From Poseidonia sp. (GTDB lineage Archaea > Thermoplasmatota > Poseidoniia > Poseidoniales > Poseidoniaceae): DNA of 64,000 bases. Below, piece after piece: positions 18,848-62,532 of this stretch. The stretch's first letter is position 1. Each line of letters begins with the position of its first letter. The stretch lies in the NCBI GenBank assembly GCA_049412325.1, contig JBMSEL010000007.1, forward strand, positions 4,626 to 68,625. The letters run 5' to 3'. The notes under the pieces are model-generated. The model was not told where the DNA came from, did not search any database, and saw only the letters and a list, made by a program, of their open reading frames with translations. The translations under genes and the position numbers were made by a program.

Positions 18848-21800
18848 GTGAACACCGTGTTTGAACTGCCATTTGGAAAGCCCGTCAATGAATCCATTTC
18901 GCTTGAGGAGGGGGTGCTGCAGCCGTTTGCTCACGGCGTCATCTCAACCTTCGCAGGGCGACGCAAGACCCCGCAAGGGCATCGGCTTGTCCGTGCTGGC
19001 CGGGTCGTCGGTTACCTCTGTGACGCCGACAAAAAAGGCGTGATGCTGGGTGGAGAGGAAGCCAAAACGGCCCTCGAAGCCCTCGAAGCTCAACAGAAGG
19101 TGCGCCACGTCGCCTCATCCTACACCATCGCCCGCCTCGGTGCCCTAGCCGAACTTGTTCCGGAGGCCTTCGTTCACCAAGCCGACCGGCAGGGGCTGAA
19201 ATCGAGCAGCAATGCCGTTGAACGACTGCTTGCACGAGACCTCTCCACCGTGGTCAGAACACTGGCAGACAACATGACGGTACGGGGCGCCATGGCCATC
19301 GACAGCGGCATGCTCATCGACCATGCTGGCGATTTGCCCGGGCTGGGGGAAGAGGAACGCTTGGCCAGTGAACTCCACGAGTTAATGAGCGGCATGGGCC
19401 ATCAGTCCCTGCATGACGGCTGGGGCATGTCCGGTCAAAGCCACTGGACGCTCCATACCGATCGTGGTGCCTTGCTTCTGGCCCAAAGCGGCGAGATTTC
19501 CATTGCGGCATGGACAGAAAAGGACGCCAATCATGCCCGCCTGCTCTCCTCTGCCTCCATTGCGCTTGAAGGCGACCTCGTCGCTGCAGGCGCACACGGT
19601 TCGAAACTGCCCGAAGGATTCACGCTCCGAGAGGGACGTGGTGGACCTGATGCGGTGCTCTCCATGTTGAAAGCCGCCATGCAGGAAGAGGTGACAGGAC
19701 ACCTTCAGTCCGGCTCATCCAGCAAAGCGGTCTCACTCATCCTGTCCCGGGGGGTACCACTCGCCCTTTGGGCACCTTCGATGGACACGGAAGAAGAGGC
19801 CATGCTCGCCCTCACCGAAGCGAAACGCAAAGTGCAACTCATTCGCTTCCCAGCAGGCACCATCGTTTCGTCCAACTCAGGAACCGTGGAAGGGTTCACG
19901 TTGGCTGGTTTCATCGAAACCCTGGCCACCGTCCGTACTCGGTCGGAGGCTCGTCAAGCCTCACTCAAAGCGATGTTGGACGACCTGTTGGGCTTTGAGG
20001 CCAGCTTGGAGGCGCTCCGAGACGCACGTTCCAAACTCAAGTTCAACACCGGCGGTGCCGATGTTGCAGAGGCTTTGCCGGTGATGCGAGATCAAGCCGT
20101 CAGCGCCGTCGATGCAGGGCTGCGCCGCAAGCTCGAAATGGCTGAACAGCGCATTGATACACTCAACAAGGAGAAAGCCGTGTTGTCATCTCAGGTCAAA
20201 GCCCTCGAGAAGAAGAAAGATGCTGCACAAATCGTTGCGCGGGAAGCCACCGAATCACGCCAAGAAAACACCTCAGCGTTGGAAGAGGCGCACGCTCAAT
20301 TGAACACCATGCAAGTTGACCTCGCCCAAGCCCGATCTCAATGGGAAGAAGCCGAGTCCCGTGCAGAACGTCTCGTTCGGCGGGTCAACGAACTGGAGCA
20401 CCAAGTCAGCCAGCGGGCTGCCGAACTTGCGAAAGCGGTCGGTGATGCAGAAAGCAGTGCTGAACTGCAAACGATGCTTGAGGAACTCTCGTTGAAGGAA
20501 GCCGAACTGCAAGCCAACATCGCCGAAGGAAGCGAGCGCCTCAGCACCATTCGAAAGCAAAGCGAAGATGAAGAACGCCGCCTCCGGGTCTTGACCGAAC
20601 AGGTCAACACCAGCCGTGAGCGGCATGCACGCGCACAAGCCGACCTCATCAGCGTCCAAGAGCAAGTCCATGTCAACAACCTCGAGCTTGAAGCGGTTCG
20701 AAGCGAGGAGAAGCACGCACGCCAGCGCACTGAGGAAGACCGCCTTCGACGAGCCGAGGACGAAGCACGGCGAGCAAACATCCAGGCGGAGTTGCGAGAA
20801 CTCATGGACGAACGCCGCCAAGTACTCCGTGAATTGGGCGATCTTGGTGCACGTCGAGGGCACGCTGAAGCCGAATTGTCGACCTTGGTTGACAAAGCCA
20901 CCTCCCTGGCTGAGGCTCACGAAGAAGCCCTCGCTGACATCCAAGAAGCAGAGCGTTTGCGCGCCCGCTTGGCCGAAGAACCGCTTGCACAAGCCCTCTT
21001 GGATGACAACACGACCTTCCAGGGCTTGGGCCCTGTGCTGGAACGGCTCGAACACGCCCGGAGCCTCGGGTACTCGGTCACGATGCTTGACCGGGCGGTT
21101 GAACGAGCATTGCAAGTGATTCAAGGAACGGTCGACCATGTCGCTGCAACGCCACGACACCTGCTCTCCTCCGAGGTCATGACGCTGTTGGAGCGCCAAG
21201 TCCCACAAACAGCAGGAGCCGTCCGAGGATTGGCTCGCTGGTCAGTGCAACAACGATTGGAGCAACAACTCGGCGAAACCGTCAATCATGTCGTCGTGGA
21301 CCTTGAGCACCTGCTCGAAGATTTCGACCGTTCCATCACGATGCTTCGCCGTATCCGAAACGTGCTCGAGCAAGTCGAGCGACTCGGTGCACCGTCCCAT
21401 GAGGTCCACGCTCTGCTGGCCAATTGTCAGCGGCCTGAAGCCCTCCCAACCTTGGCCATGGGCACTCGGAAACTGATTCAGGTTGCGCTTGACGAGATCT
21501 ACCTCGAAGCCGACCAGCGTGATGCTGGCGAAGCCATTGGTTTGGAAGAGACGGCACGCGTCCTTGAGGAACTCATCACTCAACTCGATGCTTCGGGACT
21601 GACGGACGGACGACCCCGCGGCATGATGTGGGACTTCCAACGTGACGGGCTGCTTCCGTTTGAACGCGAATCCATTCCAGCCGAGCAACGCATTCCGGTG
21701 AACGAGGCCATGCTCGACGGCATGGAGCCTCACCTTGTGCAGGCAGAGGCCGTGGAAACCGTCGCTCCGGAGGCGAATGAAACCGTGGACGACGAGGGGT

Positions 21801-22039
21801 GGTCCCCCCTGCCGCCTCCCACCGATGAATCTCCTTCCGTGAACGAGACCGCTCCAGGAAGCGAATCGATCACATCAATGGACTCACTGGAAGACGAACG
21901 GGCCCAACTTGAGGCGGAACTTGCTCGCTTGGACGCTGAGCGCAGTCATCGCATCGCACATACTCCCGCTCCAGCAAGCAACGGTGCCGACACAGCGCTG
22001 GCCGACCTTGAGTCTCGCCTGTCCGACATTGAATTCTGA
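18848..22039 (+). CDS. Large (1063 aa) protein with N-terminal roadblock/LC7-like repeats, a ~600-aa coiled coil and an acidic C-terminus
   Basis: The N-terminal 330 aa contain roadblock-like segments (VRGAMAIDSGMLIDHAGDLPG...LLLAQSGEISIAAW). Residues ~400-1000 are heptad-rich (E/R/A/L/Q). GTG start coupled to the upstream roadblock gene. Confidence 0.6.
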   Translation: MNTVFELPFGKPVNESISLEEGVLQPFAHGVISTFAGRRKTPQGHRLVRAGRVVGYLCDADKKGVMLGGEEAKTALEALEAQQKVRHVASSYTIARLGALAELVPEAFVHQADRQGLKSSSNAVERLLARDLSTVVRTLADNMTVRGAMAIDSGMLIDHAGDLPGLGEEERLASELHELMSGMGHQSLHDGWGMSGQSHWTLHTDRGALLLAQSGEISIAAWTEKDANHARLLSSASIALEGDLVAAGAHGSKLPEGFTLREGRGGPDAVLSMLKAAMQEEVTGHLQSGSSSKAVSLILSRGVPLALWAPSMDTEEEAMLALTEAKRKVQLIRFPAGTIVSSNSGTVEGFTLAGFIETLATVRTRSEARQASLKAMLDDLLGFEASLEALRDARSKLKFNTGGADVAEALPVMRDQAVSAVDAGLRRKLEMAEQRIDTLNKEKAVLSSQVKALEKKKDAAQIVAREATESRQENTSALEEAHAQLNTMQVDLAQARSQWEEAESRAERLVRRVNELEHQVSQRAAELAKAVGDAESSAELQTMLEELSLKEAELQANIAEGSERLSTIRKQSEDEERRLRVLTEQVNTSRERHARAQADLISVQEQVHVNNLELEAVRSEEKHARQRTEEDRLRRAEDEARRANIQAELRELMDERRQVLRELGDLGARRGHAEAELSTLVDKATSLAEAHEEALADIQEAERLRARLAEEPLAQALLDDNTTFQGLGPVLERLEHARSLGYSVTMLDRAVERALQVIQGTVDHVAATPRHLLSSEVMTLLERQVPQTAGAVRGLARWSVQQRLEQQLGETVNHVVVDLEHLLEDFDRSITMLRRIRNVLEQVERLGAPSHEVHALLANCQRPEALPTLAMGTRKLIQVALDEIYLEADQRDAGEAIGLEETARVLEELITQLDASGLTDGRPRGMMWDFQRDGLLPFERESIPAEQRIPVNEAMLDGMEPHLVQAEAVETVAPEANETVDDEGWSPLPPPTDESPSVNETAPGSESITSMDSLEDERAQLEAELARLDAERSHRIAHTPAPASNGADTALADLESRLSDIEF

Positions 22040-22047
22040 AGATCGCC

Positions 22048-22293
22048 ATGACGACCGACGCCACCACACTCATGGCCAGACAAGAGACCATCGGGAAGCC
22101 GTACCCGCTTTGGATGGAACGGTTGCTGCTCTTGGGAGCGGTCACGGTGTTCATCTTCTCCCGGTCAACGGTCGCTGACATCGTGGATCAACCCGTGGTG
22201 AGCGTGTTGTTAACCTACATCGCCTTCCCGCTCGCCTTACTGGCAGGCGTGGAACTCTTGGGCCGGGCAATTCAAGGTTCAATGCGCTCATAA
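22048..22293 (+). CDS. Small (81 aa) two-TM membrane protein, last gene of the roadblock operon
   Basis: Hydrophobic helices LLLLGAVTVFIF and LLTYIAFPLALLAGV. Begins 9 nt after the upstream stop. Confidence 0.45.
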   Translation: MTTDATTLMARQETIGKPYPLWMERLLLLGAVTVFIFSRSTVADIVDQPVVSVLLTYIAFPLALLAGVELLGRAIQGSMRS

Positions 22294-23505
22294 TTGCGTG
22301 AAATCCTTGGTTTCCGGCTCAGGTGGAAGACGGCTTGTTTTGGATTGGATGAACCCAATCACGCGCTGCCACGGTATGAAGAAGCGCAGCACAGCCATGA
22401 TGCTCAGGAACAACAGCGCAGAGATGACCAGGCCGTAGGTCAGCGTCAGTTCAATCGATTCTGAGACTTGCCCAGCCCACTGACTTCCAGTGGTGTCCGA
22501 TACGATGGTCAGCAAGACCTTGTGGAAGCCCAACGCGACCATGGTGGCCAAACCGGTCAACCCCAAGAACAGGAAGGTATGTCGAAGATGGGTGTTGAGG
22601 ACGTTGTCCATCTGGCGGACATATTCGGGGTCGCGCTTGCATGATTCAGGGAGGCGGAAAGCGTACTCAAGGTTGCGAATCACGCCGTAGCTGGCCTCTT
22701 GAAACACCATGATGAGCACGGCGATGAGGATCAGGTTGAATTGTTCCTGTGTCACGAGTTTGAGCCCGAACAAGCCGATGGTAGGGTCGGAGGTTTGACT
22801 CTCCAACGTGGCCAACGCCCCGCCGTAGGAGCCCAACTGAGATTTGATGAGCGGGAAGGTCAAGATGGCGTGAATGCCGAGGAACAGGAGCGTGAAACCG
22901 ATAGCCCATGCGATGGAACGGCGAGACAGGCCCCAAATGCCACGTGTTCCCATGATGACTGGGAGGAGATAGATGAAGAGAATAAGCAAGGACATGATCA
23001 TGAGCAACGGCCACTGAAGGGTTTCCAGCTCGTCGTTGGTCGGGAATCGTAGGTCAAAGGAAAACAACATACCAGCAAACCAAGACAACACCAAACGCCC
23101 GATCAACAACAGAATGAGGCCAACGATGAAACCGAGTTTGATGCGTTGTTGCACCTTGGGGGACTGGAAGGCAATGAACGCCATGACACCACCAAGGCCC
23201 AATCCCAACACGAGCGGTACAAAGAACCGGGCCATACCTGTACGGCCCTCACCGGTCAGCCAGTCGCCGAGTGGGAGTTGGTCTGAAATGAGCAACTCGA
23301 TGGAATCGAACAGGATGGTATGGTCGATGGAACCGACAACATAGGTCGAAACGACCTCGAGGTACATACCGATCAGCGCGATGGTGGCGACCACCTGCAG
23401 CGCAATGATTTGCCATTGACGTCGAAGCGTCTTGAGGTGCAGCGTACGGGGCTTCGCCGCCCCGTCAAGGTAGACGTCCGATTGGAGACCCACTTCGCCT
23501 GCCAT
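22288..23505 (-). CDS. Polytopic membrane protein (~9 TM), terminal gene of the DUF4350/DUF58 operon
   Basis: 405-aa ORF with many hydrophobic helices. Its start overlaps the DUF58 gene stop (ATGA-type coupling). Confidence 0.55.
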   Translation of the reverse strand: MAGEVGLQSDVYLDGAAKPRTLHLKTLRRQWQIIALQVVATIALIGMYLEVVSTYVVGSIDHTILFDSIELLISDQLPLGDWLTGEGRTGMARFFVPLVLGLGLGGVMAFIAFQSPKVQQRIKLGFIVGLILLLIGRLVLSWFAGMLFSFDLRFPTNDELETLQWPLLMIMSLLILFIYLLPVIMGTRGIWGLSRRSIAWAIGFTLLFLGIHAILTFPLIKSQLGSYGGALATLESQTSDPTIGLFGLKLVTQEQFNLILIAVLIMVFQEASYGVIRNLEYAFRLPESCKRDPEYVRQMDNVLNTHLRHTFLFLGLTGLATMVALGFHKVLLTIVSDTTGSQWAGQVSESIELTLTYGLVISALLFLSIMAVLRFFIPWQRVIGFIQSKTSRLPPEPETKDFTQL

Positions 23506-23507
23506 CG

Positions 23508-24761
23508 CTAGTACCCCCTCACCTGCATCAAGGCCTGCGACAAATCCATGTCAGGCATCCAATCAATCACTTGGGCTCCGGAACCGGCGAGCGTGGTCAA
23601 ACGGTTTTGGCGTTCCAGCTTCAGCACTTCATAGGACATGCGAGGGATACGACTCACCAAGCGTTCGAAATCAACACTGGACGGTGAGAGCACGGTGACT
23701 TCGTGGCCGCGACCAACCAGGTCTCGAACAGCGGCCGGCACGGTACCGTCGCCTTCACACGAGGAAATGATGAACACCGGGCTGCCTCGGCTAAATCGTC
23801 CACTCAGCGAGTTGGTGACGGCTTGAAGCGGCATGGCGCCTTTGGGAAGGACGCCCGCAAGGGCACTCAGGATCTTGAAGTACTGCTTGTCCCCGGTGTC
23901 GGGCGGCAAGTAAGCGAGCTTCTCGTCGTAAATGGCCAAGGCCACGGAATCCCGGCGCTTCAAGAAGAACGCTGCGAGACTGGCGGCCGAGACGGTGCCC
24001 ATTTCGAGAGGATTCTTGAGCACGGTACCGATTCGAGCTAAGTCACGGCTATCGAGAATGAGGTAGAGGTCGGTGACGGCGTCTCGACACTTTTCGTTGA
24101 CCATCAACTCCCCGGTTCGAGCGAAGGCTTTCCAGTTGATGTTCTTGAACGGGTCGCCGGGAACGTACTCTCTGAGGGAGTAGAATTCTGAGCCTTGACC
24201 GGGCGTGCGTAGGGTCGTCGCACCGGTGTACATCTTTGGCGTACGGCTGCGCAGGAAGGCTTCCTCAATGTCCTTGATTTGCGGGAAGATGACGATGTCG
24301 CTGTGATGGTCAACGTACATCTCTTCAACACCCAAGTTGAACGTGTTGCGGGCACGCAACGACACCGGACCGATGGAATAGTGGCCTCGAAGTGGGCAGC
24401 GAAGGACGTAGCGAATGCGGGCGCTTTCCCCGGGTTTGAGGTTGAGTTGCATTTGGTTGAGTCCACTGCGCAACTTCATCTCGTGAGGGATGTTATCGTA
24501 GATGTCGAGCATCTGCGTCTTTCGATTGCTGCGGTTGGTCACCAGCAATTCCACGTACAGGTCGTCGCCCTTGTACAAGTTGTCAGCCGAGAGCGTTCGC
24601 TGAACTTCAACATCGCCATGACCGGAAATCCATGAATTCACCACAATGAAGGCGATGAGGCTCAAGCCGAGGATCATCATCTGTTGGTTGGAAATCATCA
24701 TTCCGATGAGCACCAGCGCAATGCCGCCGGTGAAGGTGAAGGCTGCTTTTCTCGTCCACAT
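23508..24761 (-). CDS. DUF58 family protein (vWA-like, usually MoxR-associated), N-terminally membrane-anchored
   Basis: Hallmark block EFYSLREYVPGDPFKNINWKAFARTGELMVNE, two N-terminal TM helices, ~417 aa. Confidence 0.8.
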   Translation of the reverse strand: MWTRKAAFTFTGGIALVLIGMMISNQQMMILGLSLIAFIVVNSWISGHGDVEVQRTLSADNLYKGDDLYVELLVTNRSNRKTQMLDIYDNIPHEMKLRSGLNQMQLNLKPGESARIRYVLRCPLRGHYSIGPVSLRARNTFNLGVEEMYVDHHSDIVIFPQIKDIEEAFLRSRTPKMYTGATTLRTPGQGSEFYSLREYVPGDPFKNINWKAFARTGELMVNEKCRDAVTDLYLILDSRDLARIGTVLKNPLEMGTVSAASLAAFFLKRRDSVALAIYDEKLAYLPPDTGDKQYFKILSALAGVLPKGAMPLQAVTNSLSGRFSRGSPVFIISSCEGDGTVPAAVRDLVGRGHEVTVLSPSSVDFERLVSRIPRMSYEVLKLERQNRLTTLAGSGAQVIDWMPDMDLSQALMQVRGY

Positions 24762-24772
24762 GGCCTTTCACC

Positions 24773-26395
24773 TCACTGGCGCCCCCACGCCTTGATCCGT
24801 TTGACCAGCGCCACCGTTTGCTCAAGCGTGTATTTGTTGCTGGATTCAATGGCAAATTTGGCCAACACGGGGTCGTTGATCATCGAGACCAGTTCGTTGG
24901 CCTGCATCGCCTGGAATTCCTCTCGGTTCAGTCCGTTTTGATTGCGGACCTTGGACAGGAATACCTGTCGGATTTTCTCAACTTTGGAATAATAGGCGTA
25001 GCGATTCGCATCGCCAAAGCCGTAGTAGATGATGCTGAAGACGTGACGCCATGGTTCGGGGTCGCGCTTCTTGATGAGAACCGCCTCGAAGGTGATGAAC
25101 AAAATCAGGAACAACAAGAGCATGGCCAGACCCTCACCGGTGAAGTAGACCAGGAGGAAATAGACGGTGTTGTAGGAATCAGCCGCCAAGGCGCTTTGGG
25201 GATGGCGGCTCTCATCAAAGATGACCATGGCGTTCTCGGCAGGTTCACCCACTTCGTCAACGAGTTCACTCATGAGGGCCTCAGCAATGAAGTCCAACGC
25301 CCACTTGCGGTTGTCGTTCGCGGGCATCAGCGTGTCGGTTGGTCCATATTTTCCTTCGTTGAACCCTTCGTAGTCGTACATGGCGTTGATCAGCGCAGAG
25401 CCGTCGGCCACGAAGACGATGCGCCCCCCGTCCGAAGGGGAGCAACTCGCACGGGCGCAGGCCTCGATGCTGAGGTTGAATTGCCCCCAACGGTCAGGCG
25501 TTTCGGGTGTGATTTCGTTGCCCACCCAAATTTCACCGTCGCCGTTGACGTCGACCGTTGCTTCGTTGCTGGTCAAGGCGCGAACAGCGACCTCACTGAG
25601 CGGCCCACGCACACCGGGGATGACCTCAAGACCGGTGATGTTGTTGAGAAGCAACTGGTAGCTGCCGTTGTAGTCCACGCGGCCGTTGATCATGTGCTGA
25701 GCACACAGCGGTGCTTCGCCCACCACGAAGCTCTGTTCATCGAGTTTCGAACAAGGATGCTCGCCGGGCCCACCAACGTCGGCCCAGCGGTCGTGGGAGG
25801 AAAGGGTTGAGGGGTCCAACTGGGTGCCGTTCATGCCGCATGGGTTGCTTTGCACGCACATCCAGATGTAGTTGAAATCCAATTCCGTGGCGTAGGTTGT
25901 GTCAAACACCTGTTCACCCGTGAAGCGAATACCGAACGCCTCTGCGATGGTGTTCGCATAGCCGTAGTCTTCCATCACCATGGCGGTGCCGCCGGCTTCA
26001 ACAAACTCAACGATGGCGTTGATTTCAGAGGGAGAATAGCCGTTGCCTGAGGCGATGGTGATGAAACCGTCGTCATCAAATTGAGGCAGTGAAAGGGTAT
26101 CTCGCTCAACTCCGGCCAAGATGTAGGTGGTGTTGCGAGGGTCCTCAATGTCCGCCAACAAAAGCGGACTGCTCACCAAGGAGCGGGTTTCGATGCCCAT
26201 GGATTTGATATCGGCACGGAAGGCCGACATGTCGTCCCAATCGTCATCGTAGGCCGATAGCTGGTCGGTAGCACTGAGGTTGATGAAGTTCAACAATATG
26301 GTCATCAGCAAGATGAGCATGACCGCCCAAAACGACGCTTGAAGGGCGAGCCTTCGGGCGTTGATGTTGGCAGGAAGACCGAGCATGCAAATCAC
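24773..26395 (-). CDS. DUF4350-like membrane protein (N- and C-terminal TM segments flanking an extracytoplasmic domain)
   Basis: N-terminal TM (FWAVMLILLMTILLNF), blocks ...AIVEFVEAGGTAMVMEDYGYANT... and ...AENAMVIFDESRHPQ..., a C-terminal TM (VYFLLVYFTGEGLAMLLLFLILFI). First gene of the operon. Confidence 0.55.
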   Translation of the reverse strand: MICMLGLPANINARRLALQASFWAVMLILLMTILLNFINLSATDQLSAYDDDWDDMSAFRADIKSMGIETRSLVSSPLLLADIEDPRNTTYILAGVERDTLSLPQFDDDGFITIASGNGYSPSEINAIVEFVEAGGTAMVMEDYGYANTIAEAFGIRFTGEQVFDTTYATELDFNYIWMCVQSNPCGMNGTQLDPSTLSSHDRWADVGGPGEHPCSKLDEQSFVVGEAPLCAQHMINGRVDYNGSYQLLLNNITGLEVIPGVRGPLSEVAVRALTSNEATVDVNGDGEIWVGNEITPETPDRWGQFNLSIEACARASCSPSDGGRIVFVADGSALINAMYDYEGFNEGKYGPTDTLMPANDNRKWALDFIAEALMSELVDEVGEPAENAMVIFDESRHPQSALAADSYNTVYFLLVYFTGEGLAMLLLFLILFITFEAVLIKKRDPEPWRHVFSIIYYGFGDANRYAYYSKVEKIRQVFLSKVRNQNGLNREEFQAMQANELVSMINDPVLAKFAIESSNKYTLEQTVALVKRIKAWGRQ

Positions 26396-26489
26396 GAGGG
26401 AAGGATTCCCAGCCTAAACACGCCCCGTACTGACTTTAGAAGGTTGTCCACACGAGTGGGGAAAATGCTCACGCGTACTTCGTTTCGCC

Positions 26490-26735
26490 TCATACATTGA
26501 GGTGGATGTTTTCGGCTATTCGAGCCACGGCCGTCCCTGGTATGTGAACGGTAGCGCCGGTGTTCTCAAACGGCAACGCAGCGGCGTCCACGGTCGCTTC
26601 AACTTGGACGAGCAGTTCGCTGATCACACCCGTGTTCAAATCAAAACTCAGGTCCACGAGCGATCCCAACACGGCCCCGGTACGGTCCACCACGTTGTTT
26701 CCGATGATTTCACGACCAAAAATCGCCACTTGCAT
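26490..26735 (-). CDS. PRC-barrel domain protein (81 aa)
   Basis: VAIFGREIIGNNVVDRTGAVLGSLVDLSFDLNTGVISELLV matches PRC-barrel topology. Confidence 0.55.
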   Translation of the reverse strand: MQVAIFGREIIGNNVVDRTGAVLGSLVDLSFDLNTGVISELLVQVEATVDAAALPFENTGATVHIPGTAVARIAENIHLNV

Positions 26736-26793: not shown

Positions 26794-29022
26794 TCACATC
26801 GTTTCGATGCCACGACTGAAATCTCGGTTTCGCTTGATGTTGGTCAAGCCCGAGGTCAGGCGGGTTTCCATCTTCTGGTAGTAGTCAAGCATGTCAGGGG
26901 TCACGGTCGGTCGAACACGAGAAATCGCTTCTTCGAAATGCCCCTTGGTGACCTTCTTCTTGCCTGCTCGCATGCAAATCAGCGCTGCTTCACGACACAC
27001 CGCTTCGATGTCGGCACCGGTGAAGCCGTCCATGCCCGTCAAGATGTCCTTGAACGAGAATTTGGACAGCGGCATGCCTTCGCTGTGAATTCGGAAGATG
27101 GATTCACGAGCCCCTGCGTCGGGCGGTGGCACGTGAAGCACACGCTCAAAGCGCCCACTGCGCAACAGAGCAGGGTCGATCATCTCAGGTCGGTTGGTCG
27201 CCGCCACGATGATGACGCCATCAAGGGATTCAACACCGTCCATGCTGGCAAGGAGTTGGTTGACCACGCGGTTGCCAACATCGCTGCCTTCGGAGGCGCT
27301 GCCACCGCTTCGCATCGAAGCAATGGACTCGAATTCATCAAGGAAAATGATGGACGGCGCTGATTGCTTGGCCTTCTTGAAGATCTCGCGAATGGCTCGC
27401 TCGGATTCACCCACCCATTTGGAGATGAGTTCTGGACCCTTGATGCTGATGAAGTTCGCCTGTGCTTCGTTGGCGATGGCCTTGGCCAGCAGCGTCTTGC
27501 CGGTCCCGGGAGCGCCGAACAGAACGATGCCTCGAGGCGGCTTGATGCCGAAGTGCTCAAACAACTCAGGTTTGGTCAACGGCCATTCCACCGATTCCTT
27601 CAGACGGTCCTTGACCTCCAACAGACCACCGACGGCGTCCCAGCCGACTTCGGGGACTTCAACGTAAATCTCACGAAGCGCAGACGGTTCAATGTCTCGG
27701 ATGGCTTCCTTGAAGTCGTCCATGCAGACCTCCATCTTCTCGAGCACCTCGGGTGGAAGCGTCTCTTCATCAAGGTCGATTTCAGGGAGGTAGCGACGTA
27801 GCGCACGCATGGCCGCCTCACGAACAAGGGCCGCAAGGTCAGCACCGACAAACCCGTAGGTGTTGTCGAGGACCCATCCAACATCAAAGTCATCGGCGAT
27901 GGGCATCTGACGGGTATGAACGTCCATGATTTCGCTTCGACCATCTCGGTCGGGCACGCCAATCTCAATTTCTCTGTCAAAGCGGCCCGGGCGTCGCAGG
28001 GCTGGGTCGAGTGCATCGCGTCGGTTGGTGGCGCCGATGACCACCACGTTGTCACGGCCCTGCATGCCGTCCATCAGGGTCAGCATCTGAGCGACCACAC
28101 GTCGCTCAACCTCACCGGTGACGTCTTCACGCTTGGGGCAAATGGAATCAATTTCGTCAATGAACACGATGGCTGGGGCGTTGTCGGCGGCCTCATCAAA
28201 AATTTCACGGAGTTGTTTTTCGGATTCTCCGTAATACTTTGAGATGATTTCTGGGCCGTTGATGCTCTTGAAGTGGGCGTTGACCTCGGTGGCCACCGCC
28301 TTGGCGATCATCGTCTTCCCTGTGCCGGGTGGCCCGTGGAGCAGGACACCCTTGGGCGGGTCGATGCCGAGGCGACGGAAGAGTTCGGGATGCTTGAGCG
28401 GCAGCTCGATCATCTCACGCACCTTCAGAAGTTGCTGACCTATCCCACCGACGTCTTCGTAGGTGATGCCTTCGGATTGCCCGACGTCTTCCTCGGCAAC
28501 CGCTTCGTCTTTGATGACGATCTCGGTGTCGGTTGTGACGACCACGATGCCCTTGGGCACGGTTTGGACGACAGCGAACGGCAAGGCCTCAGCAAAGAGG
28601 GTCATACCGGGGATGAATATGCGGTCGCCGGCCACGACCGGTCTTTTCGCAAGGCCTCGCTTGGCAAAGCCTTCAATGCCGGGGCCGAACTTGACCTTCT
28701 GCTTGTTGGCCATCACCGGTGAAATCGTGAGTTTGGTGCAGGTCTTGGCCTCCACCTTGCGAACCGTGACACGATCACCCAGGCTGACACCAGCGTTCTT
28801 GCGGATGATGCCGTCCATTCGAATGATGTCCATCTTGGCATCCTCGGGGCGGCTGCGCCAGTAAATGGCGGCCGTAGAACGCTCATCACCGCTGATTTCA
28901 ACGAAGTCACCGGGTTTGAGGTCCAACCCCATTTCCGAGGAGATGCGTGCCCTACCGAACCCGACGTCGGAGGGGATGGCTTTCGATACGCGCAATTCAG
29001 TGGTGTCATTCTTGTCTGCCAT
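26794..29022 (-). CDS. cdc48: CDC48/VCP-like AAA+ ATPase (N domain plus D1 and D2)
   Basis: N-terminal double-psi/beta-clam region, two Walker A motifs (GPPGTGKT and GAPGTGKT), Walker B DEID/DEFE, 742 aa. Confidence 0.95.
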
Positions 29023-41911: not shown

Positions 41912-44900
41912 TCACTGTTGCGATTGAGCGTACTGGACAGCGTACTGCTGTGCATATGCTGCGGCCGTCGCTGCATCGTAGCCTTGAGCCACGAACTGCT
42001 GGTAGTACTGTTCGTACACCGCTTGGTCGAAGCCTGCTGCGGGTTGTGCTGCTGGCTGCGCTGCTGCGGGCTGAGCTGCTGCTGCGGGCTGAGCCGCTGC
42101 ACCGCCAACGTACTGCGCTGCAAAGGCCCTCGCTGTTTCCTCAGGGTAGCCCTGAGCGATGAGTTGTTGCACGTACTGCTCGGTCGGGTCAAGCGCATCA
42201 GCGCCAAATGCCCCTTCCATACCGCCGAAGGCATCGTCCTTGTCCGAACCCTTGCGCATGAACATCAGCGAACCACCGATGATCAAGAGCAACACGATGC
42301 CGCCAATGAGGAGCACCATGGGGTCAAGACCACCAGAAGCATCGTCGCCATCGGTGGTGGTTTGGGTGTTGTCGGTCCACTCACCGGTGAGCGGGTCGTA
42401 GGACCAAGCACCTTCCCATTGACAGTCGCCGTTCGCGTCGAGCACAAACTCGCCACCGGCATCGATGGCTCGCTGATCTGCCTCAAGGCCCTGACAGGCA
42501 GGGAGTTTGAGTTCAATCGATTTGGTCGTGACCCAACGCTCGTTAGGGTAGGTGCCCTCGTAATACTTGAGGAAGACCGTACGAGTGACGGGCTCGTTCG
42601 TGTAGAAGCTGCTCATATCGAGCGTCAACTCGAAGTTCTCACCGTCGCTGAGGTTGTCGCTCTTGGCCCAGAGGTCCTGTTGGCCCAACTGGTACTTGAT
42701 GGCCGCAGATGCACTGAGGTTGTCCAAGAAGAACGCCGCTTCGACGTAGACTTCACCGGTCTCCGAGCCCGAGAGGACCTTGCCGGTGAGGGTGATGGTG
42801 TCGTCGACGAATTGGGTGCCGTCCAAGTTAGCGTTGTCCCACTGCACGTCGGGCTCCTCATCGCCGAAGCCATCGGGCACGACGACGAAGTACATGCGGT
42901 GCTTCTCAGAGAACTTGCCTGCACTGTCGTAAACGACCAGTTCAATTCGAATCTGGTTCTCTGTCGTAGCGGTTGAATCAACGGTCACGTTCTTGAATTT
43001 GTACGACCATTGGCCACCGCTTGCTGCGGTTTGGGTGAACGTGTGGCCGTCCAAGTCGAACGAATCGTCGCCGTAGGGTGCGTCAAAGAGAACCTTCCAT
43101 TCGTAGGTCTCAATGCCGTTGCCGTCAAGGGCGTCCATATCCATGGATTCGCTGGCATCGAAGTGGATGATCAGTTCGGCGTCGTCGCCTTCACCTTGCA
43201 GAATGAGACGGTGAACGTCCCATTCCACATTGGAGACCGTCTTGGTGCCCATGAACTCAACGTTGTCTTCGTAGTCCGTTCGCATGTCGATCACAGCGTC
43301 GGCCTCGGGTCGGAATTCATCAGCGTAGACATCGTTGGTCTCGACCACGACGTCGATGGTTCGGGCGTGGCCGTTGTCGTCGTGGAGCATCAGCGTGATG
43401 TGCCATTGCTCGCCCTGAGCGCAGCCGGTTTGCGACGCAAGGTCAGCCTTACAGAAGGACATCACGGGAGACATCTCGGTGGAGTGCCCGGTGACACCGG
43501 CAGCAAGGGTGCTGCCGTCCCAGTTGGTGGGGCCGTCGATGATCCAGTCGGCTTCCAAGGTCTCGGTGGTCGAGGTCGTGAAGCCGAAGGTCAAGGTGGC
43601 GTCGCTCTTCATGTAGCGGAGCGCATACTTGCCGGTGCTGGGGTCGATACCGGGGACTTCACCGTTGATGGTCAAGTCCAGGCCGTTGCCGAGCGTGCCA
43701 AAGCCGTCGGGGTACGGGTTGACTTGGTACTGCAGGAGGTTGCCCATGAGCGGGAAGGTGGAGCTGTCGGCTCGCTCAGAGTGTGTGGCAATGTCAATGG
43801 TCGAGATGATCATCCCGCCAGAGAAGTAGCTGCAGACACCCAGAACGGTGTCCTGAATGTCCTCGGTTGAGCGAATAAGGCGCTGGAAGTAGCCGCCATC
43901 TTCCATGTAGCCGTTGCAGGTCTCAGGCACGTTGTTGGTGCTGACCGACTTGGTGTTCAACACAGCTTGGGCTACACCGGAGTTGGCGTCAAAGCCCTGG
44001 AAAGCGTTCACGTCAATGTTGTCCATGACCGGGTGGTAGGGGTCAGCGAGATCCATGGTAGCGTAGGTGACCTGGGTGCTGGCCGTGTCTCGACTCTGGA
44101 TGTCGAGGCCGAACGGCAGGCGACCGGCCAATCCCTGATCGAGACCGTAGATTTGGCTGCCGAGCGGGCCAAGATGGGCCTGCACGGTACCGCCGGCGGA
44201 CATGAAGTTCTCAAGCACCGTTCGGCGAGCAGGCTCACCAAGGTACTGATAGTAGCCATCACCGCCAAATTGCGTGTCCTTCGCCACCAACACATCCTGC
44301 CATGGCAGCACAATCTTGTCGTAGTGGGTGAACCAACCGGCATCGAAGTATGTACTCCAGTCGTTGATCTCGTACTGGGTGTAGGACATACCGAGGATGG
44401 CCAAATCTTGCTTGATGGCCGTGGTGCGTGATGAGGTGTCCGAAAGGATGGCGACGTCAACATGGTCGGCAAAGGTGGCGTGGAAGTAACGCTCGTTACC
44501 AGTTTCGCTGCCATCTGCCAAGCGTCCATAGAAGCTGATGTTGTAGGTCTTGCCATCCATCCATCCGTTCCAGGGTGTGAACGAGACCGTGGTCTTCTGT
44601 TGACTCTGGAGGGTGACAGCCGGTCCAGAGTCCACGATGTGGGCTTGGCTACCGTCAGCCATGTCAGTGACTTCCATGTAAAACACATAATCACCGGCAA
44701 GCACACCGTTGGTGGCTTGGATGTCCCAAGAGTGCGTCAAGGCACTGTCGATGGGCAGGACACACGCCAGGCTCTGGTCGTCGTGGCAAGCGAGGATATT
44801 GGGCTTGCCAATGGAGATGTCAACCGATTCGACGTTGAAGATGACACGCTCGATGTTGTTGGCTTCAGACAGTTCGTTGTCGTTATACCATGACTTACCA

Positions 44901-47900
44901 ATCGTGGTGTTGTCAAAGACGGTCTTGACATCCAAGCGATACACGCCCGAAAAGAACTCGTGGCTGGCGATGACGTTCGTAGCAGCATCTTCAGCGTCCA
45001 CATTGGTCCGAGAATCGGTGTAGACTGCATCTTGGACGAAGGTGTACTCTTGCAGGGAGATGTTGTTGAATCCAATGCCCTTGAAGCCATCGTTGATGCC
45101 GTTGCGGCCGTCATCGTCCGACTGGAAGTCAAAGTGGACGTCCACCATGGAACCCTGGAGCGACATGCACTCGGTTCGCCACTGGCTGGAGTCTGGGGAA
45201 GACCGGTTTTGGATGTACAAGTGAGTCAAGTCAATGCTCGTGGTCTTGACAAGTTCATCGGAGTTGAAGAACACGTTGTAGTTGCCGCTGCCATCGGTGT
45301 TCGCCGGGTCGCCGATGAAGGACAACTCGGTTTGGTCGATGGATTCGGTTGCGTTGACGATCCCGTTGCCATCGTCGTCGTTCTGACAGGTACCGTCTTC
45401 GTTGTAGTCATTCCATTGAGCGAAGACCAAACCGGTGTAATTGGCGCCGTCTTTGTCGTAGTCAACCGACATGGTGGCGTAGTCACTAGGATCGACATTG
45501 CCGTTCTGGTCGATGGTGTAGAACGTGTCAGCATAGTATTCGAAGTTGAGTGAAACGAAGTCGCCGCTCATGCTCGTCAGGTCGATGTTGGGGATGGTCA
45601 GGGTTTCGTTGGCCCAAGCATCGTCGTAGCCGAGGGTACCGGTATCACAGGGGTGGCCGAACCAGTAGGCGTTGTTGTTGAAGATCTTGGTCGAACACGA
45701 GTTTTCGTTGTAAATGGCACCCTTCGGTTGCTGGTTCTCTTCGTAGCGGTAGCCTTGACTTCCGCCCTCAAAGGTTTCCTCACAGACCGCTGAAGGTGTA
45801 CCGCAGTACACGTCCGATGGCGTAGCGGAATAGACCGTTGCCTCGATACCAAAGTCCACCGGGGTGTTACCGTAGTTGTTGGTGGTCACCGAGATGTCAA
45901 ACGTACCTTCAGCATAAAGGCCACCAGGATTGAAGAAGTCGATGGACTCCACGGTGGGGTCGTACAAATTGAACGGTGTGACATAACCGATGACGTCATC
46001 GTTGATGTCCTGTTCATCCCAAGCGTTGTTGGAAATGGTCGCCGAGATTCGATAGGTGGTATCGTTGAGCAGGTTAGCCTGAATGGACGTGGTGTACTCT
46101 TGGCCGGGCTCGAGGTTGCTGAGCGGCCCGATGGTGGTGGATTGCGTTTGCGGGTTGGGCAAGAAGGCGGTGTTTTGCTTCCAGATGGTCAGGTTGTCAA
46201 CGGCATAGCCATCACGGCCACTCCATTGGGATTCGTTGTCGTTTGCCGTTGAACCTTCGAAACCGGTGCGGAAACGGAAGCGGATGTCAACGGTTTCGCC
46301 AGCCCAGAAGGACAGGTCGAAAGCCCCGAGGTCTTCCTCGGTGAAGTTGTCCCAACCGTAGTAAGTTCCAGCAGAGAAGAGACCGTAGTACACGATGTTT
46401 TCTGGGGCTGCACCCCAGGAGTTTTGCTTGAAGAGACGGTCGTTGTCAAAGCCACCCCAAATGGTAGCACCAGAAGGACAGGCGCCTTCAATGGCCGCTT
46501 GCTGTGGGCAACCGATAAGGTTCCAGCCAGTTTCCTCGCTTCCAACCTCAACGATGGCCAAGTCATCCCAAACATCCCCGACGATGAAGCCGGTTCCGTC
46601 AGAATTTCCGAGGGCCCCAAGCCCAAGGTGGCGGAAGAGTTCAACGCTCATGAAGGCACGGTCGGCGCCGGTCAAATCAACATCGTTGAGCACCATGGCG
46701 TCGTCCCAATTCTTACCAAAGCCGCTCCAAGTGTCGCCAGAGGAATTGGTCTTCATGTTCCCGGCCCACATGAAGTCGGTCGGATTGATGTAGTTCGCAG
46801 AAACGTTGGCGTCGTTGTTGCCCCCGCCAGTGGCGCCGGTCGAATGGTTCGTTTCCAAGTGCCAGTTGGTTGTACCGTCGACGTACTCCTCAAAGCTCCA
46901 TGAACAGCCAGATCCGCAACCGGTCTTGTCCTCAGCTGAGTCCCAATCGTTGGCGTAAACAGTGTTGTTGGTGGAGTTGGCTTCATCAACGATCTTCAGT
47001 TCGACATCAAGGTCAGCAGTTTGACCGTTGAGGGTGTCCATGCCGGTGTTGGTGACGGTGACGTTGATCGTGCGTGTTCCTTCACCAACCAAGCCAAAGA
47101 AGCGGTCGGTCGGAGAGATATCAAGGGAGGTGACGGCCAAGTCTTTGTTGTCCATTTCAACAACCGTGAGCGTATCGTATTGACCAGCCCATCCGAAGTT
47201 GTCTCGCCAACCACCGAAGTTGTAGTTGGTGTGACCGACCACGAGGTCTGGGGCCGAGCTCGAACCACCCTGAAGTTGACCAACGGCCACGGCGGAGGGG
47301 CGGCGGCCTGCTGGGTAGGACAATGGGCTCACGTGTCCACCGTTGCCATCAGAAAGCGTGACTTGAACGGTGGTAGGGAAGTTGAGGAAGAAACTCGAGG
47401 TGACTCCACCAGCGGAGTCCGAGGTGTTTTGCTGGAAAGCGATGGTGGGGTTGATGAAATCAGGTTCGCTATCGCCGTTGAGGTCGGCCACTTGGATTGC
47501 CCACGAGATGTAGGGGCCAAAGTAGGCGAGTTGTGAATTTCCGAAGGTGCCTTGAGCAGAGGCTTGCTTGAAGCTCACATTTTCGAGGTTGCTGTCCATC
47601 ACAGCAATGGTGTCGACGTAGCCGACGCCGCCGATGTCAGCGATGGAGAAATCTTCGGTGGTGCCAACGCCCATGTTGATGACGTGGGTGTTGGCTTGGT
47701 TGGTGCCGTAGGAATAGGTGGCGGGGTAGTTCTGGAGTTGACAGTCGTACTCAATGACAGTGATGTTGTCGTCGTTGCCGGGGTTGGTGACTTGCCCGGT
47801 GGAGTAATCGAGACCTTCGCTTCGCAGAAGGAAGATGTCGTCATCGGTACAAGCGCCGGTCAGCCCGCTCTGAGATTCACCGTAATCGCCGACCTCGATG

Positions 47901-52119: not shown

Positions 52120-52219
52120 GATTTATGGGAAAACCCCCCCGTCTATGAAGAAAACCCTTCACCCCTCACGCCGGTTTGGCCCATCGCTGCTGCGTGGGTT
52201 CCTCTCACTGACGCTCGCT

Positions 52220-53266
52220 TCACCAGAACTCGTACCAAGGCTTGGTTTCAGAACCGACAAAGGTGGCCGACACCAACTCAACGTTTTGGGCTGGACGGTC
52301 ATTTTGACCCGTTTCGACTCCGGAAATGGCCGTGACATGGTCGCAGCCGCTGGTGACTTCGCCAAACACGGTGTGAACACCGTCCAGCCAGGAGGGCGTG
52401 CTGTCGCTGGGGATGAGGAAGAATTGGCTTCCTCCCGTGTTGGCAGCGCTGGTCTTGGCCATCGAGATGGTGCACGGCTCGTGATTGAGGCCGTTGTCAG
52501 CTTCATCGGGAATGGTATACGATGTCTTTCCGGCGCACTCCGCTTCGGTTGTCTCGGCTCCATTACAGTAACCGAACCACTTGGCTGCGTGGCCGCCGGT
52601 GCCGTCACTGTTGGTGAAATCGCCACCCTGAATCATGAAATCATCGATGACGCGATGGAAGATGGTCCCGTCGTAATCGCCGTTCTGCACGAGGAGTTTG
52701 AAATTCTCAACGTGAACAGGAGCCAAGTCGGGGTACAGCTCAATGGTGACCGTCCCGCTGTTGGCGCCGCCGTTCCACGTCAATTCAAATTCGACGATGT
52801 CGGTCGTGGTGTCGCCTCGGTTAGCGACGTTGATCATCGCCAGCAAAAGCACACCCGCCAGGACGATGGCCACGATCCCCGCAGGTGTTGGCGTGCCATC
52901 GTTGAGCAAACGAGGGAAGGTGGTCTCGCTGATGCCCTTGTCCTGCATCTCGTTGAGGAGTTCGTTGTAAAGGCGGTCAGCCTTCTTGTCCCGAGGGTTC
53001 TTCTTGGTGGATTCTCGAAGCAGCGAGGCGGCACGACGGTAGTCGCCGCGGTTGTTGCGTGCCTTGGCCTCGAGCCAGGTCGCATGGCCTGCCAGACGCA
53101 GCGTGGTGGGCTCCTTGCCGTCGGCGTCAATGTCCCGAAGAATCTTCAGGGCTGAATCGCCTTTTCCTTTCGTGATGGCTTTCTCAGCCTTCTCCCATCC
53201 GGCCGTCATCGCATCGTCCGCCATGCTTCTGCCCAACCACCCTATGGTTTTGAGCCGTTCGCTCAA
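52220..53266 (-). CDS. Membrane-anchored cyclophilin-type peptidyl-prolyl cis-trans isomerase with an N-terminal TPR-like cytoplasmic region
   Basis: FHRVIDDFMIQGGDFTNSDGTGG cyclophilin core, a central TM helix (AGIVAIVLAGVLLLAMI) and TPR-like N-terminal helices. Confidence 0.85.
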   Translation of the reverse strand: MSERLKTIGWLGRSMADDAMTAGWEKAEKAITKGKGDSALKILRDIDADGKEPTTLRLAGHATWLEAKARNNRGDYRRAASLLRESTKKNPRDKKADRLYNELLNEMQDKGISETTFPRLLNDGTPTPAGIVAIVLAGVLLLAMINVANRGDTTTDIVEFELTWNGGANSGTVTIELYPDLAPVHVENFKLLVQNGDYDGTIFHRVIDDFMIQGGDFTNSDGTGGHAAKWFGYCNGAETTEAECAGKTSYTIPDEADNGLNHEPCTISMAKTSAANTGGSQFFLIPSDSTPSWLDGVHTVFGEVTSGCDHVTAISGVETGQNDRPAQNVELVSATFVGSETKPWYEFW

Positions 53267-53317
53267 GCAAACTGTTCGGCGCCCTACGGGCGTCAGCCTG
53301 CTGAATGGAGCGGCAAC

Positions 53318-56223: not shown

Positions 56224-56273
56224 GTGGCCCCGAACCGCTTCTCTCATTAAGGAGCCCGAACAAATACAAGGCT

Positions 56274-57904: not shown

Positions 57905-57907
57905 CGG

Positions 57908-58723: not shown

Positions 58724-58726
58724 TGA

Positions 58727-61447: not shown

Positions 61448-61515
61448 ATGAATTTGATTCGGTTTGACACGACATCTTCAAACCATAGAAGCCTTTCTTA
61501 CCAAACGGTGAGCGA

Positions 61516-62028: not shown

Positions 62029-62032
62029 TTCC

Positions 62033-62425
62033 ATGGTTGAGGAACTGAGCGTGGAATCCAAGGTGGCCCCGCCACCACTTTCCTGTCCCAAATGCACTGG
62101 ACTTCTACCCTCAGGCTTGGGCGAACTCCAGTGCACGCTGTGCGAAGCTCGGGTCCGCGTGGACCACCCAGCCACACGTCGAAAATGGAAGGAGGAGAAA
62201 TTGTCCTGTCCCGAATGCTCGAAGGTGCTCGTGGCAGGTGTGGACACTCGCCCGGCCGACCTCAAATGCGGTTCATGTGATTCATACTTCACACTCAAGG
62301 CGAACGTGCCAAGGGTCGAGATCGAATGCCCTGGGTGTCATCGCAATCTCAGGATGAAACGCCGACCAGGAAAACGCGAGATTTCCTGCCCTGCGTGCGA
62401 CAAGGAATTCACGGTTCGATTTTGA
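62033..62425 (+). CDS. Triple zinc-ribbon protein (130 aa, six CxxC pairs)
   Basis: CPKC...CTLC, CPEC...CGSC and CPGC...CPAC. Begins 5 nt after the regulator stop. Confidence 0.5.
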   Translation: MVEELSVESKVAPPPLSCPKCTGLLPSGLGELQCTLCEARVRVDHPATRRKWKEEKLSCPECSKVLVAGVDTRPADLKCGSCDSYFTLKANVPRVEIECPGCHRNLRMKRRPGKREISCPACDKEFTVRF

Positions 62426-62532
62426 GGGACTCCGTGCCTCCGTAAGGGTGGAAAAAGCGCGTGCTACGCCCATGGCTTCGTCGCGCTCCTTATCTATGAA
62501 GAGAAGTCCATGAAGAAGTGGATGGGATTCCA

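Follow-up and report, generated by a model that had tools for sequence, protein, structure and literature searches.

A DUF4350-DUF58 membrane-protein operon in Poseidonia and a MoxR ATPase gene 43 kb away as its likely partner

Three genes in a compact group

The window analysed here is the whole 64,000 nt stretch of contig JBMSEL010000007.1 from Poseidonia sp. (GCA_049412325.1). Positions 22288–26395 are occupied by three minus-strand ORFs with exact boundaries (Table 1), referred to here as the trio, whose products are a DUF4350-like protein, a protein of the DUF58 family and a polytopic membrane protein designated X. These ORFs and the Pfam matches of the first two products agree with the initial annotation of a DUF4350-like, a DUF58 and a polytopic membrane gene in this interval. 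It had also described the three genes as overlapping, which was incorrect as they are separated by gaps of 11 nt (DUF4350/DUF58) and 2 nt (DUF58/X). The neighbours of the trio are a PRC-barrel gene and a CDC48 gene, a gene for a 1063-aa protein without family matches and an 81-aa ORF.

Table 1. Features of the trio locus and of the MoxR locus beyond the right end of the window
Feature	Position	Strand	Basis
Polytopic membrane protein X, 405 aa, 8–9 TM	22288..23505	-	BLASTP, hhalign, operon position
DUF58 protein, 417 aa	23508..24761	-	PF01882 65.4 bits, AlphaFold2, Foldseek
DUF4350-like (arCOG01314-type) membrane protein, 540 aa	24773..26395	-	PF14258, TM scan, BLASTP
Non-coding spacer 5′ of trio, 94 nt	26396..26489	-	Spacer length and motif conservation
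BRE/TATA-like element ACAACCTTCTAAA	26435-26447	-	Conserved in spacer
Upstream element TGAGCATTT, 9-mer	26463-26471	-	Conserved in spacer
PRC-barrel protein, 81 aa, separate module	26490..26735	-	PF05239 31.8 bits
CDC48/VCP-type double AAA+ ATPase, 742 aa, outside system	26794..29022	-	TIGR01243 984 bits
Zinc-ribbon protein, 130 aa, walking anchor, outside system	62033..62425	+	Exact-sequence look-up leading to L092
MoxR, 333 aa, intact	Window-equivalent 69186-70187 (L092 17154-18155)	-	PF07726, AAA_lid_2

The order CDC48-PRC-DUF4350-DUF58-X was kept in 80 of the 85 Poseidoniales sequences examined, was also present in the family Thalassarchaeaceae and was retained in a divergent 3-Mb contig with different flanks. 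The arrangement of the trio is not a chance pattern of ORFs, and all three ORFs were intact in every locus examined. The first homologue search was saturated by Poseidoniales, and a scan of the genome collection with a single DUF58 query returned only relatives at least 93% identical; a profile made from distant representatives was used for other lineages.

The 540-aa protein matched DUF4350 (PF14258) with 42.9 bits (gathering score 30.4), bearing out the initial assignment; the profile was partly covered, with the best stretch at residues 98–167. The predicted architecture consists of an N-terminal TM anchor (approximately residues 20–38), a large extracytoplasmic GldG/flavodoxin-like domain, a C-terminal TM segment (423–441) and a cytoplasmic tail of approximately 100 aa. 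BLASTP comparison with the proteins encoded just 5′ of MoxR in four operons (L085, L086, L087 and L088) gave E values of 1e-13 to 1e-23, and the alignment with the operon DUF4350 proteins spans the C-terminal TM segment and the tail. A search of PDB sequences with this protein returned nothing useful. DUF4350 and DUF58 are joined in fusion proteins elsewhere, as DUF58 relatives of 730–758 aa that were suspected to be MoxR-DUF58 fusions were found by Pfam to be DUF4350-DUF58 fusions.

The match of the 417-aa protein to DUF58 was equally as predicted, with a score (Table 1) above the cut-off of 23.4. It comprises an N-terminal TM hairpin (residues 4–46), an Ig-like beta-sandwich (51–159) and a VWA-like alpha/beta domain (231–416). 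When the AlphaFold2 model (mean pLDDT 83.3) was compared with the PDB using Foldseek, the matches were to TRAP-beta and complement MG-like beta-sandwiches and to the VWA domains of CMG2, Rpn10 and CLCA1. The canonical MIDAS motif DxSxS...T...D was absent from this protein, in which the first motif is D237-S-R239-D. The D and R at the MIDAS position are invariant across the subfamily, MoxR-linked members included, and all 14 invariant and 21 of the 25 near-invariant residues of the MoxR-linked relatives are retained. Identity between two Poseidoniales families is 76–77%, on par with CDC48. From the positive-inside rule alone, the globular domains are predicted to be cytoplasmic, which contrasts with the vWA protein of the archaeal arCOG01314 system, drawn as secreted (PMC5898192).

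A Kyte-Doolittle scan of the 405-aa protein revealed eight hydrophobic segments, making 8–9 TM segments a fair estimate (nine were originally proposed). No match was found in Pfam, NCBIfam or PDB sequences. BLASTP against the X proteins of L096, L095 and L088 gave E values of 4e-7, 6e-6 and 8e-5, respectively, and hhalign aligned it with X over 116 columns (probability 66%, E 5.5e-5). The gene also occupies the same operon slot as X, directly after DUF58, and its product is an enlarged homologue of the 6-TM X protein (271–318 aa) of canonical operons.

Promoter-like motifs in the upstream spacer

The spacer that precedes the trio contains a BRE/TATA-like element and an upstream 9-mer. Across 80 loci, this PRC-DUF4350 spacer is 81–133 nt long, compared with 11 and 2 nt between the genes of the trio. 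ACAACMTTCTAAA was found in 79 of the 80 spacers and TGAGCATT in 74. Within the window, ACAACMTTCTAAA occurs only once, even with one mismatch, and there is a single exact occurrence of TGAGCATTT. The spacer is probably the promoter of a three-gene operon.

Adjacent CDC48 and PRC-barrel genes

Profile matches (Table 1) confirmed that a small PRC-barrel gene and a full CDC48 gene lie upstream on the same strand, as first reported. The CDC48 protein includes CDC48_N, CDC48_2 and two AAA domains, and the gap between the two genes is 52–66 nt in most Poseidoniales loci. As regards a possible kinship with the CdpB-type cell-division proteins CdpB1/CdpB2, matches of the PRC-barrel protein to solved archaeal PRC-barrel proteins were only marginal (8qzo, E 0.028; 8onw, E 0.06), and its identity between Poseidoniales families is only 33–35%, less than half that of DUF58.

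Adjacency of Cdc48 and PRC-barrel genes is widespread in archaea and is a known neighbourhood that does not include DUF58 or DUF4350 (Zhao et al. 2023, bioRxiv 10.1101/2023.03.28.534520). The Poseidonia locus is like it in that a small single-domain PRC-barrel gene comes after a full CDC48 gene and shares its strand, but the likeness is limited to these two upstream neighbours and does not extend to the trio. In other Thermoplasmatota, the 10 kb on either side of the homologous operons contained no CDC48 gene. The co-occurrence of the operon with CDC48 and PRC-barrel genes, which had been suggested as a check, held within the Poseidoniales, but CDC48 was absent from the neighbourhoods of the homologous operons outside this order. 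The synteny in Poseidoniales also takes in unrelated genes, namely those for aldehyde dehydrogenase, SdhAB and TtuA, so gene order alone tells little. The CDC48 and PRC-barrel genes are an unrelated module adjoining the trio.

Related operons in other Thermoplasmatota

In other Thermoplasmatota the operon order is (transglutaminase/DUF4129 giant)-DUF4350-MoxR-DUF58-X. The closest DUF58 relatives outside the Poseidoniales (approximately 38–40% identity) were all found in DUF4350-MoxR-DUF58-X operons, several of which also hold a DUF4129 or transglutaminase giant. Bacterial MoxR-DUF58-TgpA transglutaminase clusters resemble these canonical operons. When the trio was compared with the canonical operons (L085–L088, L091, L095 and L096), the DUF4350, DUF58 and X genes were orthologous and in the same order, and the Poseidoniales MoxR ortholog described below was 62–76% identical. 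Unlike in those operons, MoxR is gone from the slot between DUF4350 and DUF58, where there is an 11-nt gap, and no DUF4129/transglutaminase giant was found in the window, where neither the 1063-aa neighbour nor any other large protein resembles such giants. There was also no VWA_2 or TPR gene adjoining the trio to indicate a Bacteroides-type Bat/aerotolerance operon (MoxR-DUF58-BatA/BatB VWA-TPR).

A MoxR gene beyond the right end of the window

The initial annotation found no MoxR gene in the window, and a tblastn search with three operon-type MoxR queries likewise detected nothing at E<1e-3. Using the same queries and threshold, none was found within 10 kb of the trio in 84 related Poseidoniales loci. 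The classical P-loops in the six frames of the window are two in CDC48 and one in an ABC ATPase. As P-loop regular expressions would miss a MoxR subfamily with the Walker A sequence PGLAKT, tblastn was used instead.

The gene for a zinc-ribbon protein was used as an anchor for walking, and an exact-sequence look-up led to L092, a public contig from the same population. Bases 1–11968 of L092 correspond to positions 52033–64000 of the window with 99.79% identity and no gaps, and the contig reaches 7.2 kb past the right end. It includes an intact MoxR gene 5.2 kb beyond the window and approximately 43 kb from the trio. With this gene lying just outside the window and on the same strand as the trio, the earlier view of a MoxR-less system does not stand.

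The L092 MoxR matched PF07726 (AAA_3) with 219 bits and PF17863 (AAA_lid_2) with 65 bits, and contains the Walker A sequence PGLAKT, the Walker B sequence DEINRA (in LLADEINRA) and ATQNP. Its nearest relatives, with 75.5% and 71.8% identity, are the operon-embedded MoxRs of L095 and L096, and the best DUF58 scores came from the same lineage, so the phylogenies of MoxR and DUF58 agree. Judged by its sequence, the relocated MoxR is an ortholog of the operon type.

In the metagenome loci, aIF5B was upstream of MoxR in 68 of 68 and a ParA/MinD-like gene was downstream in 78 of 79. A homologue of DUF58, DUF4350 or X was found within 4 kb of MoxR in none of 80 loci, and thus no VWA partner adjoins MoxR. 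In Poseidoniales, MoxR has gone from the DUF4350/DUF58 slot and now lies between aIF5B and the ParA/MinD-like gene, and this stand-alone position is stable. Between L090 and L092, the MoxR proteins are 90% identical and the flanking proteins 47–62% identical; for L090, tblastx synteny was decisive, with tetranucleotide similarity dominated by GC content. Both MoxR and DUF58 are under strong constraint. A literature search for MoxR jointly with Marine Group II or Poseidoniales found no paper, and a preprint on divisome positioning held no relevant link to MoxR or ParA.

The 9-mer TGAGCATTT was found only twice in 71 kb, once ahead of DUF4350 and once ahead of MoxR. Its presence upstream of MoxR is limited to the closest relatives (10 of 80 loci; absent in L090), and it is therefore only a weak hint that the trio and MoxR may be co-regulated.

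Relationship to known systems

The locus belongs, in rearranged form, to a system already predicted in 2015, in which arCOG01314 (DUF4350), vWA (arCOG02742, arCOG02747) and MoxR (arCOG00434, arCOG00435) proteins form an archaeal secretion or membrane-remodelling system (Makarova, Galperin and Koonin 2015, PMC5898192). MoxR (COG0714) was present in 'the majority' of those operons (PMC5898192), hence a MoxR gene in the same operon is typical but not obligatory. The Poseidonia genes share with this system a DUF4350 protein that is anchored at its N-terminus and has one TM segment near its C-terminus, an Ig-like plus vWA (DUF58) protein, a small polytopic membrane protein encoded downstream of the vWA gene and, in the genome, a MoxR ATPase that belongs to the same subfamily. 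They differ in that MoxR is outside the operon, between aIF5B and the ParA-like gene, that X is enlarged (405 aa versus 271–318 aa) and that no partner genes of the S-layer-like, Ig-domain or giant kinds were found at the trio locus.

MoxR-class AAA+ ATPases are paired with VWA partners in RavA-ViaA, NorQ-NorD, CbbQ-CbbO and BchI-BchD, and these pairs are the basis for proposing ATP-driven remodelling or assembly via a VWA adaptor. Poseidonia likewise has a MoxR-type AAA+ ATPase and a partner with a VWA fold, but that partner is membrane-anchored, has D-S-R in place of DxSxS in the MIDAS, and is encoded at a separate locus.

Proposed function and alternative explanations

We consider it likely that the trio encodes the membrane and adaptor subunits of an arCOG01314/MoxR/DUF58-vWA system with MoxR acting in trans. 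As the gene for the 'missing' ATPase has moved approximately 43 kb, the locus represents an ordinary operon split, and the ATPase of the trio would most likely be supplied in trans by the relocated MoxR. This pairing is indirectly suggested by the orthology of MoxR, the congruent closest lineage, the lack of any other adjoining VWA partner and the shared 9-mer; elsewhere, the genome may encode a second MoxR or a further VWA/DUF58 client. Service by a distant MoxR was among the options initially raised, and an intact gene on the same strand favours it. In the proposed complex, DUF4350 would place its GldG-like domain outside the cell and its conserved tail inside, the TM hairpin of DUF58 would tether this protein to the cytoplasmic side of the membrane, with the Ig-like and VWA-like domains facing the cytoplasm, and X would form the polytopic membrane core. 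A MoxR hexamer supplied in trans may dock on the VWA-like domain, with ATP driving assembly or remodelling of the complex. The complex would probably serve to mature, export or remodel cell-surface proteins, in line with the 2015 proposal (PMC5898192).

The trio could instead be independent of MoxR, forming a passive DUF4350-DUF58-X membrane complex, with MoxR serving other clients, for instance one connected with the ParA/MinD-like gene beside it. The genes are unlinked throughout the sampled MoxR clade, the ParA-like gene is an almost constant neighbour of MoxR and the MIDAS of the DUF58 VWA domain is non-canonical, all of which fit this explanation. However, the non-canonical MIDAS is common to the MoxR-linked relatives, with the same invariant D and R, DUF58 retains every residue that is invariant in those relatives, and no other VWA partner adjoins MoxR, making independence unlikely. 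That the trio is a functionless, decaying remnant of a MoxR operon, as in the degenerate system considered in the initial annotation, is scarcely credible. The locus lacks both MoxR and the DUF4129/transglutaminase giant, but the intact ORFs in all loci, a DUF58 as conserved across families as CDC48 and with its invariant residues retained, the compact spacing and the conserved promoter-like motif effectively refute decay.

Use of a different ATPase had also been suggested. Functional replacement of MoxR by CDC48, with the PRC-barrel protein perhaps acting as an adaptor, would explain why the five genes keep their order in 80 of the 85 Poseidoniales sequences, the Thalassarchaeaceae and the divergent 3-Mb contig. 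We regard it as very improbable. The genome still holds an intact, strongly conserved MoxR of operon type, adjacency of Cdc48 and PRC-barrel genes is general in archaea and does not involve DUF58 or DUF4350, CDC48 is not found near the homologous operons of other Thermoplasmatota, and the conserved order extends to unrelated genes. In addition, the spacer between PRC and DUF4350 is never shorter than 81 nt and includes a conserved promoter-like motif, and the PRC-barrel protein is poorly conserved relative to DUF58. A broader rewiring in Poseidoniales, with the complex handled at least partly by Cdc48 and a PRC adaptor, or tied to the cell-division/envelope cycle, and MoxR taking a new job beside the ParA/MinD-like ATPase, would be a long shot.

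Implications

With the trio read as part of an arCOG01314/MoxR/vWA system served by MoxR in trans, the 405-aa 'hypothetical' protein of the Poseidoniales, which are abundant marine archaea, can be assigned to that system along with their DUF4350/DUF58 pair, and the stand-alone MoxR adjoining aIF5B can be annotated as a tentative partner ATPase. The Poseidonia locus brings the function of the arCOG01314 system no closer to reach. An operon that seems to be without a gene in one window can reflect operon fragmentation, as here MoxR was 5 kb past the edge. The split also provides a natural case in which to ask whether MoxR and its VWA partner must be co-translated or co-encoded.

Gene content of the locus

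The minus-strand genes for the DUF4350-like, DUF58 and 405-aa membrane proteins form a real, conserved three-gene operon. Their ORF ends agree exactly with the span 22288–26395 in the initial annotation, and its assignments of the 540- and 417-aa proteins, together with the PRC-barrel gene and full CDC48 gene upstream on the same strand, were borne out by profile matches (Table). The three genes had been described as overlapping, but they are tightly packed without overlap, with gaps of 11 nt (DUF4350/DUF58) and 2 nt (DUF58/405-aa). The 405-aa protein had no match in Pfam or NCBIfam. The reported absence of MoxR from the window also held, as tblastn with operon-type MoxR proteins found none there or in 84 related loci, and the only classical P-loops in the window are those of CDC48 and one ABC ATPase.

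Two plus-strand ORFs are convergent with the trio. The 81-aa ORF, with two hydrophobic segments, shares 6 nt with the 3' end of the 405-aa gene and has a positional counterpart in a Thalassarchaeaceae locus, where a gene for 83 aa is called (L081, 12478–12729). The 1063-aa protein has no Pfam match and no predicted TM segment, and it does not resemble the DUF4129/transglutaminase giants that canonical operons encode. Thalassarchaeaceae have a called gene of 1062 aa in the matching place, which is missing from the divergent locus L084. Elsewhere in the window, the 2247-aa protein, with weak FG-GAP repeats as its sole Pfam signal, is probably a giant surface protein.

Table. Features of the window and of contig JBMTKH010000012.1 (L092); positions are those of the window unless stated
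Feature	Position	Strand	Match or property
DUF4350-like protein, 540 aa	26395–24773	−	PF14258, 42.9 bits (gathering score 30.4; profile covered in part only)
DUF58 protein, 417 aa	24761–23508	−	PF01882, 65.4 bits
405-aa membrane protein	23505–22288	−	8 strongly hydrophobic segments
PRC-barrel protein, 81 aa	upstream of trio	−	PF05239, 31.8 bits
CDC48, full-length	upstream of trio	−	TIGR01243, 984 bits
PRC-DUF4350 spacer	26396–26489	−	footprints at 26435–26447 and 26463–26471
1063-aa protein	18848–22039	+	
81-aa ORF	22048–22293	+	
2247-aa protein	41912–48655	−	
MoxR, 333 aa	L092 17154–18155 (window-equivalent 69186–70187)	−	AAA_3, 219 bits; AAA_lid_2
aIF5B to 84-aa gene string	L092 15518–19170	−	
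TGAGCATTT upstream of MoxR	L092 18225–18233 (window-equivalent ~70257–70265)	−	

Relationship to DUF4350-MoxR-DUF58 operons

Relatives of the DUF58 protein were sought first among 1.84 billion representative proteins and then with a profile. Those from outside the Poseidoniales were reached at approximately 38–40% identity, and in every readable context MoxR was found directly upstream of DUF58. Most of these loci read, in full, (DUF4129 or TgpA-transglutaminase giant), DUF4350, MoxR (AAA_3), DUF58 and X, an unannotated 6-TM protein of 271–318 aa. The same system was reported by Makarova, Galperin and Koonin (2015; PMC5898192), who found arCOG01314 (DUF4350) together with a vWA protein and a MoxR ATPase of COG0714 and predicted a complex for secretion or membrane remodelling.

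The window DUF4350 protein could be aligned with those of the operons, including the C-terminal TM segment and cytoplasmic tail. The 405-aa protein matched X both in BLASTP (E values of 4e-7, 6e-6 and 8e-5 for loci L096, L095 and L088, respectively, from other Thermoplasmatota) and in a profile comparison (E 5.5e-5, probability 66%), and the motifs E..(S/T)..IR and S(L/I)E....YG are common to both. About eight representative proteins of 730–758 aa contained the DUF58 match in their C-terminal part. All four that were checked using Pfam (P0200, P0201, P0220 and P0255; ~28–32% identical to the window DUF58) were fusions with DUF4350 N-terminal and DUF58 C-terminal, giving independent Rosetta-stone support for joint action of the two proteins. 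Unlike the canonical operon, the Poseidoniales have only the 11-nt gap in the slot of MoxR.

A relocated MoxR gene

A search with a profile built from three operon MoxRs brought up a set of MoxRs of 330–334 aa. One of these, in locus L090, stands alone between aIF5B and a ParA/MinD-like gene, and tblastx revealed synteny between this locus and the window's right-hand end. The last complete gene of the window (62033–62425), looked up by exact sequence, led to the NCBI contig L092, from the same population, which is 99.79% identical to window 52033–64000 (11,968 nt, gap-free) and reaches 7.2 kb further. It carries an intact MoxR gene on the same strand, 5.2 kb past the window end and ~43 kb from the trio. 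A MoxR in such a place is what the initial annotation itself had named as refuting its reading, and the idea of a MoxR-less system does not stand. The gene lies in a conserved same-strand string of aIF5B, MoxR, a 319-aa ParA/MinD-like ATPase (AAA_31/CbiA) and 80- and 84-aa proteins. Its Walker B is DEINRA and its Walker A is PGLAKT; in this MoxR and those of L085–L087 (PGLAKT/S) alanine replaces the second glycine, and simple GxxxxGK[ST] scans therefore overlook the subfamily.

This position is stable among 80 metagenome loci with MoxRs 80–100% identical: aIF5B was upstream in 68/68 and the ParA-like gene downstream in 78/79, and none of the 80 has a DUF58, DUF4350 or X homolog within 4 kb of MoxR. 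The Poseidonia MoxR is 62–65% identical to five operon-embedded MoxRs, which are 64–87% identical among themselves. Outside the clade it is closest, at 75.5% and 71.8% identity, to the operon-embedded MoxRs of L095 and L096, the lineage that also gave the best DUF58 scores. Between L090 and L092, MoxR is 90% identical and the flanking proteins 47–62%. All 14 invariant residues of its MoxR-linked relatives, and 21 of the 25 near-invariant ones, are retained in the window DUF58. On these grounds the system is neither degenerate, as had been suggested, nor without an ATPase gene. The trio belongs, in rearranged form, to a known but functionally uncharacterised system, and its ATPase gene has been relocated, not lost.

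Conservation and the CDC48-PRC neighbours

The window comes from Poseidonia (Marine Group IIa, Poseidoniales), and its DUF58 gene was found on 80 genome contigs at 93–100% identity. The order CDC48-PRC-DUF4350-DUF58-405aa was retained in 80 of the 85 sequences examined, and is also present in the family Thalassarchaeaceae and, with X in the last place and different flanks, in L084 (ENA ERZ26167216; 3.0 Mb, 67.5% GC in the fetched locus). The L084 CDC48-PRC gap is 663 nt, and its contig size and GC content are atypical for Poseidoniales. Synteny in the order extends to unrelated genes (aldehyde dehydrogenase, SdhAB, TtuA), making gene order by itself a weak guide to function. Between families, identity is 76–79% for CDC48, 76–77% for DUF58, 42–48% for DUF4350, 41–43% for the 405-aa protein and 33–35% for PRC.

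CDC48 had been proposed as a possible ATPase for the trio, and this is unsupported. Many archaeal PRC-barrel genes adjoin Cdc48 genes (Zhao et al. 2023), so the CDC48-PRC pair is a module of its own, and outside the Poseidoniales the homologous operons have no CDC48 nearby. In all 80 loci PRC and DUF4350 are 81–133 nt apart, and the spacer contains a BRE/TATA-like footprint, ACAACMTTCTAAA (79/80 loci), and a second footprint, TGAGCATT (74/80). These conserved footprints point to a putative separate promoter for the trio.

Window and extension, 71 kb in all, contain just two copies of the 9-mer TGAGCATTT. They lie in the DUF4350 spacer and upstream of MoxR, both with a TATA-like box ~20 nt 3' of them. 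The copy at MoxR is confined to close relatives (10/80 metagenome loci) and is absent in L090. The shared 9-mer gives a weak hint that the trio and MoxR may be co-regulated.

DUF58 structure and a possible mechanism

The AlphaFold2 model of DUF58 (pLDDT 83) consists of a TM hairpin (residues 4–46), a beta-sandwich (51–159) and an alpha/beta domain (231–416). Using Foldseek, the beta-sandwich matched Ig-like domains and the alpha/beta domain matched the VWA domains of CMG2, Rpn10, CLCA1 and MDN1. The MIDAS is non-canonical, with D-S-R-D at residues 237–240 (D237-S-R239) in place of DxSxS, and the D and R are invariant throughout the subfamily, including MoxR-linked members. Canonical metal-dependent ligand binding by this subfamily is therefore unlikely.

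From the basic N-terminus and hairpin, the globular domains of DUF58 would be cytoplasmic, alongside MoxR, while DUF4350 would place a GldG-like domain outside the cell and its conserved tail inside. A MoxR hexamer may dock onto the VWA-like domain of DUF58 and would thereby assemble or remodel a membrane complex of DUF4350, DUF58 and X that may act on cell-surface proteins.
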